A DNA stretch of 64,000 bases. Origin: an uncultured Verrucomicrobiae bacterium (GTDB lineage Bacteria; Verrucomicrobiota; Verrucomicrobiia; Chthoniobacterales; JAFAMB01). The notes under the pieces were generated by a model. That model saw only the letters and a program-made list of their open reading frames with translations, did not search any database and was not told the origin of the DNA. The DNA is taken from assembly GCA_963813025.1 (NCBI GenBank), contig CAWEXO010000005.1:128001-192000 (forward strand), written 5' to 3'. Positions 3,396 to 60,842 of the stretch are shown here, one piece after another. A program made the position numbers and the translations under genes. How positions within the stretch are numbered: the stretch's first letter is position 1; the number at the start of each line of letters is the position of its first letter.

Positions 3396-3750
3396 GGTCT
3401 GTCGGACTTTGGCCAATCTGTAGCTCGCGCAATCGAGCTAAGGTTCGAGACATGTCCCAAAGCGTCTTTGGTCCTGCGCCGGTAGGGCGAAAATTTATTC
3501 GAGCCTTAGCGAGAACTTGTTTGAGCCGTCTTCAGTGTGACCTGCCGCAGCGCCCGGCTCGAACGAGTCTTCGCCGAAAGGCTCAGATGAATTCTCGCCC
3601 TACCGATTTTGGGATGTTGCGAGACATTCTCTAAATTTTCGCCCTACCGCCACAAGACAGTGCGGCATTCTGAGACGATCTCTAACCGCTCGGGCGACCA
3701 ATCGCTTGGGTGGCGTGCTACAGATTTCCAAAGTCCGACAAGTCCTGGAA
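3390..3750. mobile_element. MITE-like composite repeat with terminal inverted repeats, containing a GTAGGGCGAAAAT REP doublet
   Basis: TTCCAGGGTCTGTCGGACTTTGG ... CCAAAGTCCGACAAGTCCTGGAA; 3395-3709 nearly identical to 39892-40203; related copy at 24551-24917. Confidence 0.8.
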
Positions 3751-12967: not shown

Positions 12968-13612
12968 ATGAAAAACGATTCGAATTTGAATGTTGAGATT
13001 CGGGACGTGACAGACGGCTTGTGGGTGTGGCGATTCGAAAATCCCTTCTGGAAGCCTGGTCTCGATTGGGAGCCTCTCACGACGTCAACATGCGTTGCGT
13101 CAGGAGGTGAGATCCTGGTTCTGGATCCGCAGGCCCCACCATTCGGCGCAGTTGAGGTGTGGGAACGGCTTGATGCACGTCCCCCGACCGCAGTTGTTAT
13201 TCTCAAGCCGGATCACGTTCGAGATGCTGATCTGTTCGTGCGCCGTTACGGTTCCCGTGCATTCGGGCCAAAACTCTTCTTTCGTGACGACGTTCCTGAG
13301 ACCCTGCTGGAGCCGATTGAGCCCGGGAGCAATCTTCCGGGAGGGATCATCGCCCTGTATGATGGACGGGGCGAAAATGAAACGCCGCTATGGTTGCCTG
13401 AACAGCGGGCCCTTGTTTTTGCTGATGCGCTGACAGCGCCCGGAGGGGAGCTACGAGTTTGGGGGACACCATGGCATGAAGAGCGTGTATTACCGGCATT
13501 ACGCCGGTTGCTTGAGCTGCCATTCGAATACGTGATCGTTTCACACGGCGAGCCGGTGCATACTCGCGCCGCTTATGAGCGTGCTCTCGAGCTGATCCCC
13601 TGGACTGGATAA
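12968..13612 (+). CDS. Metallo-beta-lactamase-fold hydrolase-like protein
   Basis: Degenerate MBL motifs (LKPDHVRD, VFADAL, VSHGEP). Confidence 0.65.
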   Translation: MKNDSNLNVEIRDVTDGLWVWRFENPFWKPGLDWEPLTTSTCVASGGEILVLDPQAPPFGAVEVWERLDARPPTAVVILKPDHVRDADLFVRRYGSRAFGPKLFFRDDVPETLLEPIEPGSNLPGGIIALYDGRGENETPLWLPEQRALVFADALTAPGGELRVWGTPWHEERVLPALRRLLELPFEYVIVSHGEPVHTRAAYERALELIPWTG

Positions 13613-13686
13613 ACGAGGCTCAAAGAAAGAGAGCGTCTCGGAACATTCTTGGGCTCTGTGCTGGTAGGGCAGTATCTGAGCAGGTC

Positions 13687-13692
13687 TGGCAA
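13687..13692 (-). promoter_or_regulatory. -35 half (TTGCCA) of circle-junction promoter
   Basis: On circularisation: TTGCCA-17 nt-TATAGC (15349-15354). Confidence 0.7.
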
Positions 13693-13701
13693 GGGAAAAA
13701 G

Positions 13702-14976
13702 TTAAAGTTTTTCACCGATTGGTGAGTGGCGTTTTTTGAGGACTTGGAGGTAGCGCTCTTCGTCATAAGGGGTGCGGTCCTGCCAGAGCCGGAAGATGAC
13801 GCGGATCCATTTAAAGGCCAAGGCGCGCACGGCAGTGTGGTGGGACTTACCGCGGGCCATTTGCTCTTGATAATAGAGCTTGGCCCATTGGGAATAAGGA
13901 ATGGAATGAGCCGCGAATTCGTGGAAGCTCTGGCACAGGAATTTGGAGCGAAAGCGCCGCCGCTGGACGCTTTTGGTTTGGCCGCTGCGCACTTGGACCG
14001 GAGCGATTCCGCTTTTTTTCTGTACCTCCAGGGCTTGGGCAAAAGCCTGCCGATTGGAGCCAAAAGCCACCAACAAGCGCGGGGCTAATTGCGGGCCGGC
14101 TCCGGGCAGACTTTCAAAAATGTGCCGATCGGGATGTTTGGCAAACAGAGTGTGGATGGCTTTGTCAAAAGCCTTGATGGAATCTCGCAGCGGCAACAAT
14201 TGACTGACCAAACACTTGCAACTCAGCACGGAGGGCTCCAGCAGAGAACGATCCTCGGTGACGGTTTGGGCCCGAGCAATCTTTTCCAAGCGCTCCTCGA
14301 TCAAGCTCTGGCTGCGGCTGTGGTGCTGATAAAAAAAAGAGCGCAGGGTCTGGGGCTTGGCTTTTTTTAAACTCTGCAGGGTCGGCCAGCGTTTCAAAAA
14401 ATGCAGCGCCAGAGTGGTGCCCAAATCATCGAGGAGCTCGAGGGCCAGCGGATAGTAGACTTTGAGTAAGCTGGTGAGTTGGTTTTCGCACACCACGGAG
14501 GCCTCGACGGCTTTGCGTCGGTGCTGACCGAGCAAATCCAGTTCCCGCACTACCGGCTCCGGGGGTTGATAAAGCCGGAGCCGATCCCGATGGTGATCAA
14601 CGAGCTCTTCGATCAATTGGCTGTCGCGAGGGTCATCCTTGGCGCCACTAGTAAAGAAGACCTTGCGGTATTCGCTTAAACTCAAAGGATTGAGCGGATA
14701 GAGGTCGATCCAGTCTCCCTGGGTGCGGAGCATTTCAAAGAGTGCTCCCCGATTTTGTTCAAAACCAATGGCCACCCGCCCCTGCGGACCAGCCAAGCTT
14801 TTGAGCTCTTCGAGCCAGGTCCGAACCGAAACGGGATCGGCGCCCAGCTGGAATGTCCGGCATCCTCCCTCCGGACCAGAGCGTTGACAGACAGCGTGTT
14901 CTTTATCAGCCCAATCGATTCCCACGCTGACCATATAATGGGGATCTGGGACCGGAAACGGATTTGATCGGTTCAT
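13702..14976 (-). CDS. IS110-family DEDD transposase/recombinase
   Basis: RuvC-like DEDD residues (VGIDWAD, GFEQ, KDDPRD), LPGAGPQLAPRL, and SGIAP...RSG with candidate catalytic Ser; RBS AAGGAG. Confidence 0.95.
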   Translation of the reverse strand: MNRSNPFPVPDPHYMVSVGIDWADKEHAVCQRSGPEGGCRTFQLGADPVSVRTWLEELKSLAGPQGRVAIGFEQNRGALFEMLRTQGDWIDLYPLNPLSLSEYRKVFFTSGAKDDPRDSQLIEELVDHHRDRLRLYQPPEPVVRELDLLGQHRRKAVEASVVCENQLTSLLKVYYPLALELLDDLGTTLALHFLKRWPTLQSLKKAKPQTLRSFFYQHHSRSQSLIEERLEKIARAQTVTEDRSLLEPSVLSCKCLVSQLLPLRDSIKAFDKAIHTLFAKHPDRHIFESLPGAGPQLAPRLLVAFGSNRQAFAQALEVQKKSGIAPVQVRSGQTKSVQRRRFRSKFLCQSFHEFAAHSIPYSQWAKLYYQEQMARGKSHHTAVRALAFKWIRVIFRLWQDRTPYDEERYLQVLKKRHSPIGEKL

Positions 14977-15000
14977 GCTTGCTCCTTTTTTCTGGTTTTA

Positions 15001-15345
15001 CCCAGCGCGAAAAAAGCCGCTTGGCTTTGGCCGTCCGAAATCCGTATAGTTAAGTCGTCGAAGTGTGAAGTGCTCGACCTCAACTAGAGTATTCGTTGTG
15101 ACGAATCAAAGCGCGACCGGCTGGCTCGAAACTCTGCCCTAAAGATCTCGCGGACCCGAAAATCCTATTCGTAGCCAGCCGGCGCGTCCTTCTTCGCGTG
15201 GGCAGCGCGGGATTTTGCCCGACTGCCCTTGGCAAAGAAAACCCTTTCTTTTTTCCAAAGCTTTCTTTTCTCCGGGCGGAGTTATTCACAAGCTGGAGCT
15301 CCGACCGGTAGGGCCTCCGACCACAGCTTGCTGAATAACTCCGGA
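15001..15345 (-). ncRNA. Putative bridge RNA (target- and donor-binding loops) in the IS110 left end
   Basis: Two stem-internal-loop-stem domains closed by stem 15001-15016/15189-15202; loop segments match the REP target (GGATTTTCG, TAGGGC) and the circle junction (ATACT, CTATAC). Confidence 0.8.
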
Positions 15346-15348
15346 CTT

Positions 15349-15354
15349 GCTATA
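15349..15354 (-). promoter_or_regulatory. -10 half (TATAGC) of circle-junction promoter
   Basis: First six bases of the IS left end; 17 nt from TTGCCA in the circle. Confidence 0.7.
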
Positions 15355-15445
15355 CGAAAATTCACTCGAGCGGCCGAGGCCATGTTGCGAGACACTCCCA
15401 GACCGTATTCCCTCCTTGCTCCTTAGAACTCTGGCTGTCGGCCTG

Positions 15446-16435
15446 CTATAAGGCATGCACTGCGCTGAGCTGTTCGTGAACAAATTTGATGCGGTTCACC
15501 AACGGACGCCCGAACACCGGAGAGCTGATCTCGACGACGTCTTCGTCCTGCATCCTGATTCCATTGGCGAAAGAAAGTGTGCCTGTTCCGAAGAAATGGA
15601 CATGAACATCGCCAGGCCGACGAAATTGCGGGTACTTGAACTGGTGATATTCAAGGTTTGCCAGAGAATGGCTCATGTTGTCTTCTCCGGACAAAAACGG
15701 CTTTTCCCAAAGTACTTTTCCGTTCCGGAGAATGCGGCTTACTCCCGCCACGTGAGCGGGCAAAGACCCGACCAGCAATTCGGGTCCTAACGCGGAGGGG
15801 CGTAGTTTCGAATGCGCCAGGTAAAGATAGTTCCGTCTCTCCATGACGTGATCGGACAATTCGTTGCCGAGGGCAAACCCGACACGGCAAGGCCGAGTAT
15901 CGGGTCCGATGAGATAGAGCCCGACAATCTCCGGTTCTTCGCCGGCATCCTCGCCGAAACCAGGAACCGATAGTGAAGCGCCTGGACGAGCGATGATGCT
16001 GCCGTCGCCTTTATAGAACCACTCTGGCTGCACTCCCGGCCGACCCTGTTGAGGTTTTCCTCCCTCAACTCCCCACCGAAACATTTTGAGCGAATCAGTC
16101 AATTCTTCTGCCGCTGCGCTGATCTTCTGGTGCATTTGGTCGCGAGTCGCCGCGCTCCCCAGATGGGTCAGACCGGTTCCAGTGACTAGACAATGTGCTG
16201 GATCAGGGTGATCCAGTGGCGGAAGAATTTTCTGCTCTGCTAATAATCGGCTGTACTCATGCGTTCCCGCGACTTGGCAATTCTCGATTTGTTGGGCCAG
16301 AGTTTTACCTGAACCGATTGCTTGCCAAGCCAAATCCCGGATCGATTCCAGGCCTGCGATTTCCAGCGCCTTTTCTTCGTCGATGATCGCCACGGCACGG
16401 GCGCCGTCCGCTTTTTCGAATTGGATTAAATTCAT
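15446..16435 (-). CDS. AraD1/GguC family (FAH superfamily) protein
   Basis: GTGLTHLGSA, QPEWFYKG, GEEPE, NYLYLAHSKLR motifs. Confidence 0.88.
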   Translation of the reverse strand: MNLIQFEKADGARAVAIIDEEKALEIAGLESIRDLAWQAIGSGKTLAQQIENCQVAGTHEYSRLLAEQKILPPLDHPDPAHCLVTGTGLTHLGSAATRDQMHQKISAAAEELTDSLKMFRWGVEGGKPQQGRPGVQPEWFYKGDGSIIARPGASLSVPGFGEDAGEEPEIVGLYLIGPDTRPCRVGFALGNELSDHVMERRNYLYLAHSKLRPSALGPELLVGSLPAHVAGVSRILRNGKVLWEKPFLSGEDNMSHSLANLEYHQFKYPQFRRPGDVHVHFFGTGTLSFANGIRMQDEDVVEISSPVFGRPLVNRIKFVHEQLSAVHAL

Positions 16436-24550: not shown

Positions 24551-24917
24551 GGGTCTGTCGGACTTTGGAGCACGCGGTACGATTTTTGTAATTTGCTTCG
24601 CGACCTGACAAGATCGGTAGGGCGAAAATTCAATTGAGCGCCAGGCGAGAACTTGTTTGAGCCGTCTTGGGCGCGGCGAACCCCAACATCCGGCTCGAAC
24701 GAGTCCTCGCCGAAGGCTCGGATGAATTCTCGCCCTACCGACCGTGAAACAAGACCACTCCCTTGTGTGAAGGTTCTCGTGCTTCGGACACGTCCCGAGG
24801 TCAGGCCAACCCGGCGGCGTCTTGGAGTGCGCGCGACTTGTCGCCGCTTTCGGATCGCGCGGAGCGCGGCCAATGCAGATCTTCCGGATCTTCTCACGCC
24901 TAAAGTCCGACGGACCC
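24551..24917. mobile_element. MITE-like composite repeat with TIRs and an internal REP doublet
   Basis: GGGTCTGTCGGACTTT ... AAAGTCCGACGGACCC (15/16 inverted match); GTAGGGCGAAAAT...ATTCTCGCCCTAC inside. Confidence 0.8.
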
Positions 24918-39891: not shown

Positions 39892-40203
39892 GGGTCTGTC
39901 GGACTTTGGTCAATCTGTAGCTCGCGCAATCGAGCTAAGATTCGAGACATGTCCCAAAGTGTCTTTGGTCCTGCGCCGGTAGGGCGAAAATTTATTCGAG
40001 CCTTAGCGAGAACTTGTTTGAGCCGTCTTCAGTGTGAATTCCCCAACGCCCGGCTCGAACGAGTCTTCGCCGAAGGCTCAGATGAATTCTCGCCCTACCG
40101 ATTTTGGGATGTTGCGAAACCTTCTCTAAACTTTGCCCTACAGGCACAGGACAGTGCGGCAATCTGAGACGATCTCTAACCGCTCGGGCGACCAATCGCT
40201 TGG
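39892..40203. repeat. Copy of the ~315 bp composite repeat (left TIR only)
   Basis: Near-identical to 3395-3709. Confidence 0.9.
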
Positions 40204-46006: not shown

Positions 46007-46154
46007 CCCTGTGTCGGTAGGGCGAAAATTCATTTGAGCCGGACGCTGGGTGGGCCCCCGCTCCAGACGGCTCCTCCTTCGCTAAAGCTATGGCGGACAC
46101 GTCAAACAAGTTCTCCCTAAGGCTCAAATGAATTTTCGCCCTACCGACACAGGG
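46007..46154. repeat. REP doublet (REPIN-like) with a perfect 34 bp inverted repeat
   Basis: ccctgtgtcggtagggcgaaaattcatttgagcc (46007-46040) / exact reverse complement at 46121-46154. Confidence 0.9.
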
Positions 46155-60582: not shown

Positions 60583-60842
60583 GGTAGGGACGAGCTCCGC
60601 TCGTCCGAATGGCGAGATCCACCTGCGCTCAAATGGTCAAGCAGGAATTTGACCGGAGTTTGACCCTGCCGCCTCAGGTGTTGCGGGACAATCTCTTTAT
60701 TCGAACCTCCGGCGGGAACTCGTTTGAGCCGCACACAGGGGGTGTGCCACACCTCCACGACGGCTCAAACAAGTTCTCGCTGACGCTCGAATGAATTTTC
60801 GCCCTACCAGCACAGAGCCCAGGAATGTTCCGAGGCGCTCTC
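60583..60842. repeat. Composite REP cluster containing an empty IS110 target site
   Basis: GTAGGGACGAGCTCCGCTCGTCC hairpin plus ...gaattttcGccctaccagcacagagccc matching the IS110 flanks. Confidence 0.85.

Follow-up and report, generated by a model that had tools for sequence, protein, structure and literature searches.

A putative bridge RNA in the left end of an IS110-family element, with loops that match the element's target repeat and part of its donor junction

The long non-coding left end of an insertion sequence raises the question of whether an RNA folded from it, and not the recombinase encoded next to it, selects the insertion site. The locus in question lies in a window of 64,000 nucleotides of DNA from an uncultured Verrucomicrobiae bacterium. 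An initial annotation had read positions 15001-15202 as a bridge-RNA-like transcript with one loop matching the target and a second loop matching the element's own junction. All four loop motifs were found at the annotated places on the minus strand (GGATTTTCG, 15157-15165; TAGGGC, 15136-15141; ATACT, 15088-15092; CTATAC, 15044-15049), and so were the stems and both closing strands (15189-15202 and 15001-15016). As detailed below, this region is very probably the bridge RNA core of an insertion sequence that is active and belongs to the IS110 group. Coordinates of the features are given in Table 1.

BLAST of positions 13600-15450 against the element's own genome retrieved ten full copies with 98-100% identity and one 215-nt left-end fragment. 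Alignment of the junctions displayed a single left end (...TTTTCG/TATAGCAAG) and a single right end (...CTCAGATACTG/CCCTACC) in differing surroundings. The copy in the window is an IS110-family element of approx. 1.68 kb on the minus strand (13671-15354) with the left tip TATAG (15354) and the right tip ...CAGATACT (13671). Its left junction reads ...GAATTTTCG/TATAG... (T at 15354) and its right junction ...CAGATACT-G/CCCTACC (T at 13671, G at 13670). Since the G at 15355/13670 is the sole base common to target and donor, the element boundary is ambiguous by one nucleotide. The non-coding left end (LE) comprises 378 nt (14977-15354), the right end (RE) only 31 nt. The junctions of the copies together with the empty sites demonstrate that insertion is site-specific and occurs without target duplication. 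Assignment to the IS1111 group, which is characterized by a long RNA-bearing right end and subterminal inverted repeats of 7-17 bp, was ruled out by the short RE and the location of the RNA in the LE.

Two full copies and the solo left-end fragment of the same genome carry the first 13 nt of the element in tandem (TATAGCAAGTCCG twice; L005, C13:92669..; L010, C11:77965..; L011, C1:207986..). Insertion of a circle at the CG that lies 12-13 nt within a resident left end, with subsequent collapse of the tandem copies, would be expected to leave such a duplication; another option is a variant that transposes as a unit. The solo fragment (L011, C1:207772-207986, 215 nt) breaks off within the target-binding loop, at a place that is not a contig end.

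All ten full copies reside in one short repeat, RAATTTTCG directly followed by CCCTACC, and the target of the window element reads RAATTTTCGCCCTACC. The left flank was GAATTTTCG in six of 11 copies and AAATTTTCG in five, while the right flank was GCCCTACC in nine of the ten full copies and ACCCTACC in one. Joining of both flanks yields the empty site GAATTTTCGCCCTACC, which was found 42 times as an exact match in the genome compared to 0.002 occurrences expected from composition, confirming that target and donor have a single G and no other base in common. Further 118, 81 and 74 matches contained one, two and three mismatches, respectively, resulting in a total of 315 at up to three mismatches, and AAATTTTCGCCCTACC occurred 83 times in the genome. 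Inside the window, ten unoccupied sites of the pattern RAATTYTCGCCCTACC were counted (none in 100 shuffles), eight of which form four inverted pairs approx. 100 bp apart. A search with a pattern that leaves a 2-nt gap between the target halves gave no match because the halves abut. The target is a high-copy interspersed repeat, and the host repeat looks like a paired unit of the BIME or MITE type. The term REP of the initial annotation therefore fits in a loose sense only: a stem-loop beside the target, as in ISPpu10, was sought in the 41 nt upstream of 127 sites and none was found (-3.0 kcal/mol versus -3.0 kcal/mol for shuffles). The 15-mer AATTTTCGCCCTACC was counted 127 times genome-wide.

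The 424-aa recombinase encoded directly downstream of the RNA region contains the Pfam domains PF01548 (DEDD_Tnp_IS110; residues 18-176, E 1.3e-20) and PF02371 (Transposase_20; residues 285-370, E 1.1e-8). Motif spacing and the structure-match alignment point to D21, E73, D115, D118 and S331 as candidate catalytic residues. Among solved structures, the protein matched those of ISCro4 (PDB 9t56, E 2e-6) and IS621 (8wt6, E 9e-6) in the Tnp domain only, which argues for a recombinase lineage distant from IS621. Because the similarity to IS621 is this distant, the transfer of its mechanism to the window element is an inference. The recombinase of the DEDD+Tnp type downstream, the combination of a long LE and a short RE and a loop geometry like that of IS621 all support the proposed IS110-group bridge RNA.

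Folding of the 202 nt from 15001 to 15202 (minus strand) with RNAfold, a check suggested in the initial annotation, resulted in a minimum free energy of -82.1 kcal/mol. Shuffled sequences reached a mean of -61.4 kcal/mol (sd 3.9; z = -5.31) and none out of 200 was as stable. The MFE structure contains the closing stem and both stem-loops. A consensus structure calculated from ten clade members with RNAalifold consists of 66 pairs and reproduces the closing stem and the two arms, each with its CGAA/UUCG closure and its inner hairpin. Two internal loops flank the inner hairpins in the MFE structure, in the relatives and in the clade consensus. The outer stem of the target loop is formed by CCGGCTGGCT (15173-15182) and AGCCAGCCGG (15117-15126) on the minus strand; RNAalifold analysis of 24 relatives revealed 15 pairs for the target-loop stem as a whole, 12 of them with compensatory double changes, among them the CGAA/UUCG closure of the loop, which is replaced by CGGA/UCCG in L057. 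In the donor loop, the inner stem consists of TAGTTGAG (15079-15086) and CTTAACTA (15047-15054), again on the minus strand. RNAalifold recovered only three pairs from a MAFFT alignment of the donor-loop half alone, which was ascribed to the alignment, and per-sequence folding and the clade alignment were used instead. Per-sequence folding displayed a donor arm outer stem of at least five pairs around both anchors in 22 of 23 relatives.

The long hairpin 5′ of this core is probably equivalent to the stem-loop at the 5′ end of the primary transcript. Its apex contains GCCCTACCGG, which resembles the right target flank; as sister elements lack it, the resemblance was taken as coincidence. An Rfam search of positions 13500-15600 at E values up to 1 yielded no bridge-RNA family and three chance-level matches only (MAT2A_D, mir-223 and Histone3), the miRNA match at the 5′ hairpin merely reflecting the hairpin shape.

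Table 1. Positions of the element, its RNA and its target sites within the window.
Feature	Position	Strand	Evidence or remarks
Whole IS110-family element	13670..15355	-	Ten full copies with the same ends in differing flanks; empty sites join the flanks directly
Left target half GAATTTTCG (LT + target core CG)	15355..15363	-	Junctions of copies
Right target half G-CCCTACC (RT)	13663..13670	-	Junctions of copies
Right donor arm RD, TATAG	15350..15354	-	Doubles as -10-like box of the predicted circle-junction promoter
Right end, 31 nt	13671..13701	-	-35-like TTGCCA (13687-13692), CTCAG (13676-13680), left donor arm ...AGATAC-TG
Long 5′ hairpin, 65 nt, GGAGTTATTCAGCAAGCTG ... CAGCTTGTGAATAACTCC	15278..15342	-	Stem arms kept in relatives, apex variable
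Closing stem, 5′ strand	15189..15202	-	MFE and ten-member clade consensus, two compensatory pairs
Closing stem, 3′ strand	15001..15016	-	MFE and clade consensus
Target-binding loop (TBL) domain	15117..15182	-	Outer stem 15173-15182/15117-15126, CGAA 15168-15171/UUCG 15127-15130, inner hairpin 15144-15156
LTG GGAUUUUCG	15157..15165	-	Same sense as left target; would pair with target bottom strand, G.T wobble at 1-2 positions
RTG UAGGG-CA	15135..15141	-	Complementary to TG-CCCTA = RT + donor-type core
Donor-binding loop (DBL) domain	15025..15111	-	Outer stem CUUUG 15107-15111/CAAAG 15025-15029, CGAA 15092-15095/UUCG 15036-15039, inner stem 15079-15086/15047-15054
Candidate LDG region	15077..15092	-	Options: AUACU (15088-15092) or homologous-register CUC(U)AGUUG (15079-15089)
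RDG CUAUA-CG	15043..15049	-	Complementary to CG-TATAG = RD + target-type core
Recombinase gene, 424 aa	13702..14976	-	GGAG (14982-14985) precedes ATG; directly downstream of RNA region
Unoccupied target 16-mer copies, ten in total	3481-3648, 24616-24739, 39978-40099, 46016-46145, 60793-60808		

Relatives with 29-72% protein identity were collected from 60 related genomes, from a set with one genome per species (by record title including assemblies of Verrucomicrobiota, Acidobacteriota and Planctomycetota) and from metagenome contigs. The RNA region was aligned for 24 elements, the loop strands were cut by alignment column and the flanks of each element by coordinate, and the longest exact match was scored. 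LTG matched the left flank with a median length of 6 in 21 cognate pairs compared to 3 in 479 non-cognate pairs. Scored against the right flank, the reverse complement of RTG gave medians of 7 (23 cognate pairs) and 3 (525 non-cognate pairs). When flanks were permuted among the RNAs, none of 2000 trials reached the observed match sum for LTG, RTG, LDG or RDG, although kinship of the relatives means that this overstates independence. Guides and flanks varied jointly across approx. ten different target sequences. While the window element combines LTG GGAUUUUCG with the flank GAATTTTCG, its sister L033 combines AGGUUUUCG with AGGTTTTCG. The RTGs of L040 and L016 (GCGGGA versus CCGGGA) co-vary at a single base with the targets CTGCGGGA and CTCCGGGA, respectively, and the guides of L053 and L056 go with GTCTCCGGT and GTCTTTGGT. 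In the window element itself, the segments of the first loop match the left half and the reverse complement of the right half of the insertion site, with both junctions as annotated. The right flank fits the element's own RTG poorly (longest match of 5 or less) in five of 23 cases (L021, L047, L049, L050 and L052; L054 is marginal), which may be off-target or decayed copies.

One element on a metagenome contig, L079, is inserted at CAGAGCCTCG and combines a CAGGTTTTCG-type LTG with a left tip (TATAGCTAATCC) that belongs to another subclade, which may point to recombination or to insertion off target. L033/L045 and L044 are nearly identical elements with an upstream flank identical over more than 60 nt, found in a Verrucomicrobiota and a 'Candidatus Acidiferrales' assembly. 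Either the element lies inside a larger shared repeat or one of the contigs is mis-binned.

In the donor loop, RDG was exactly the reverse complement of the junction dinucleotide plus the 5-nt tip in all 21 elements with a known left junction. It follows changes of RD from TATAG to TATGG, TACAG or TATTG and of the dinucleotide from CT to CG, CA or AA. The CTATAC segment, annotated as a match to the donor junction, overlaps the donor inner stem by 3 nt. In these alignments LTG, RTG and RDG track each element's own flanks, so that the comparison with homologues proposed in the annotation turned out positive for these three guides. The second donor motif, ATACT, is a doubtful left donor guide (LDG). 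It is located in the family-conserved motif CGAAUACUC, which is kept where the right ends of relatives differ, and a 5-nt match of this kind, taken alone, is not beyond chance. At the homologous place, 20 of 23 relatives repeat their right end with CUCAG plus zero to four further bases (ACC, ATG, GTG, GGC etc.). The corresponding segment of the window clade is CUCUAG or CUCUGG, of which only CTC matches the right end contiguously. Hand alignment in this register, with one bulged U and G.T/U.G wobbles allowed, paired 8 of 11 positions in the window element and 10 of 11 in L033.

It might still be that the RNA is a bridge RNA with AUACU (15088-15092) as LDG, which would pair with ATACT beside the core as the LDG of IS621 does, and that the CUCAG match seen in the relatives is not relevant to this clade. 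The LDG of IS621 ends at exactly the point where ATAC-T meets the core here, all examined right ends of the clade retain TACT and all their RNAs AAUACU, and the homologous CUCAG segment is disrupted in the window clade. We consider this assignment somewhat unlikely. AAUACUC is conserved in RNAs of elements whose right ends read ACCTCT, ATGTCT or GTGCTA, which argues that it did not evolve to match the donor. Moreover, its A15092 is the last base of CGAA and is taken up by pairing with UUCG in the loop closure, and clade right ends vary between ATACTG, TTACTG and CTACTG while AUACU remains unchanged. The weaker fit of the DBL 5′ strand to the donor compared to sister elements (8 of 11 versus 10 of 11 positions), together with the presence of a solo left-end fragment, would also suit an interpretation of the copies as relics, in which the RNA once guided insertion and the element is now inactive. 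This is improbable given ten copies with 98-100% identity over 1.7 kb, all of which carry the open 424-aa frame, indicating recent spread. Still further from a bridge RNA, the structured region could be a mere 5′ leader of the recombinase mRNA involved in translational control or stability; the protein would then pick the target, and matches between loops and flanks would be due to coincidence or hitch-hiking. The position directly upstream of a Shine-Dalgarno sequence and start codon would fit a leader, and a lone match of 5-6 nt does not exceed chance. What makes this explanation extremely improbable is the joint change of guides and flanks over approx. ten target sequences with single-base compensations (L040 versus L016; window versus L033), a degree of matching that flank permutation did not reproduce, and a strand logic (5′ side in the same sense, 3′ side complementary) identical to that of IS621.

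The core reads CG in the target and TG in the donor, and only its second base (G) is common to both. LTG reads CG, RDG is complementary to the CG of the target and RTG to the TG of the donor. In the CT-core relatives, target and donor have a short core in common that all four guides read; in the window element, they share only the G. Before exchange, RTG of the window element faces the first core base of the target with an A.C mismatch. As RTG reads the donor T and RDG the target C, the right guides fit best after strand exchange. According to Hiraizumi et al. (2024, PMC11208158), cleavage of the top strands in IS621 takes place 3′ of the CT core, and exchange brings the incoming core into pairing with RTG and RDG; the two bases that follow RTG or RDG ('handshake guides') are expected to suit the non-cognate partner. 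The first core position of the window element seems to behave like such a handshake position, since the right guides complement the first core base of the partner, resembling the published rule. Handshake positions were scored in 15 elements, after nine of 24 had been dropped (four without flanks, five without an exact RTG site). Donor position 7 pairs with the base that follows the RTG core in all 15 elements, compared to five of 15 for the cognate target, while the base on the DBL side did not discriminate (12 of 15 versus 13 of 15). It is conceivable, albeit rather doubtful, that the first core position is unequal by design (target C, donor T), with right guides written for the incoming partner and a core that itself serves as an intrinsic handshake biased towards the state after exchange. 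An unequal first core position was seen in the window clade and, as deduced from junctions, in L022 and L015. All ten full copies contain the C of the target as first core base on the left and the T of the donor on the right. This would be the outcome expected from top-strand information alone and not the 50:50 mix of an unrepaired heteroduplex. Should the reading of an unequal core be true, natural copies bear on the contribution of the bottom strand to the product, i.e. cut-and-paste versus top-strand or copy-type transfer.

In each of 23 elements, a TTGNNN hexamer precedes the right end by exactly 17 nt, and a circle of the window element would consequently carry TTGCCA-17-TATAGC. A sigma-70 scan of the integrated copy detected no promoter on the strand of the RNA. 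We infer that the RNA is expressed. In the description of IS621 by Durrant et al. (2024, PMC11208160), the -35 of the natural promoter belongs to the right end, LTG and LDG pair with bottom strands and RTG and RDG with top strands, and all four guides read the core. Homology to IS621 predicts that the window element excises as a circle, the junction of which would bring the right-end -35 TTGCCA and the left-end TATAGC together at a distance of 17 nt. The junction promoter might then drive a transcript that spans the 5′ hairpin and the bridge RNA together with the recombinase mRNA. Each loop would be loaded with recombinase dimers, LTG and LDG would pair with bottom strands and RTG and RDG with top strands, and the top strands would be cut 3′ of the core and swapped before the bottom strands follow.

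These results argue for a genuine bridge RNA, a divergent example of a kind of RNA-guided recombinase known since 2024. The novelty implied by the initial annotation did not hold, as the mechanism has been in print since that year and the cited part of the report by Durrant et al. (2024, PMC11208160) already predicts thousands of orthologous ncRNAs and finds a bridge RNA in 85.7% of the IS110s in ISfinder. For general biology, the element is an ordinary mobile element of an already explained kind. Its value is that of a natural example, distant in lineage from IS621, whose sequence reveals guide, target (hundreds of genomic copies), donor and predicted junction promoter in full. Bridge-recombinase mining may profit from the conserved CGAA/UUCG loop closures, the approx. 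ten natural target reprogrammings and the one-base shared core.

Among known systems, ISPpu10, also an IS110 element, resembles the window element in that its bridge RNA directs it to a conserved intergenic repeat present in many identical copies; unlike the target described here, that of ISPpu10 bears a GC-rich 5′ stem-loop, which provides a second check (bioRxiv 10.64898/2026.03.19.712850). IS1111-type seekRNA elements share the recombinase family and RNA segments matching both target strands, but differ in a non-coding region downstream of the gene and a reversed order of guide segments (Siddiquee et al. 2024, PMC11187229). The transposase of ISCro4 (PDB 9t56) is the best match among solved structures (E 2e-6, residues 224-412); the alignment is restricted to the C-terminal domain and includes the SG motif, with S331 of the window protein at S244 of the chain. 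Compared to IS621, as far as the cited parts of PMC11208160 and PMC11208158 describe it, the window protein displays remote similarity only (E 9e-6, confined to the Tnp domain). The RNA of the window element differs in that a closing stem connects its two arms, each loop is closed by CGAA/UUCG pairs and a 65-nt 5′ hairpin precedes a spacer of approx. 75 nt. Target and donor share one core base instead of CT, and LDG of the window element's relatives lies further from the core. Like IS621 in those same reports, the window element combines a DEDD+Tnp recombinase with an ncRNA in the long left end and a genomic repeat as target, two internal loops with putative guides for the bottom strand on the 5′ side and for the top strand on the 3′ side, a -35 in the right end that would create a promoter across the circle junction, and a putative handshake position after RTG.
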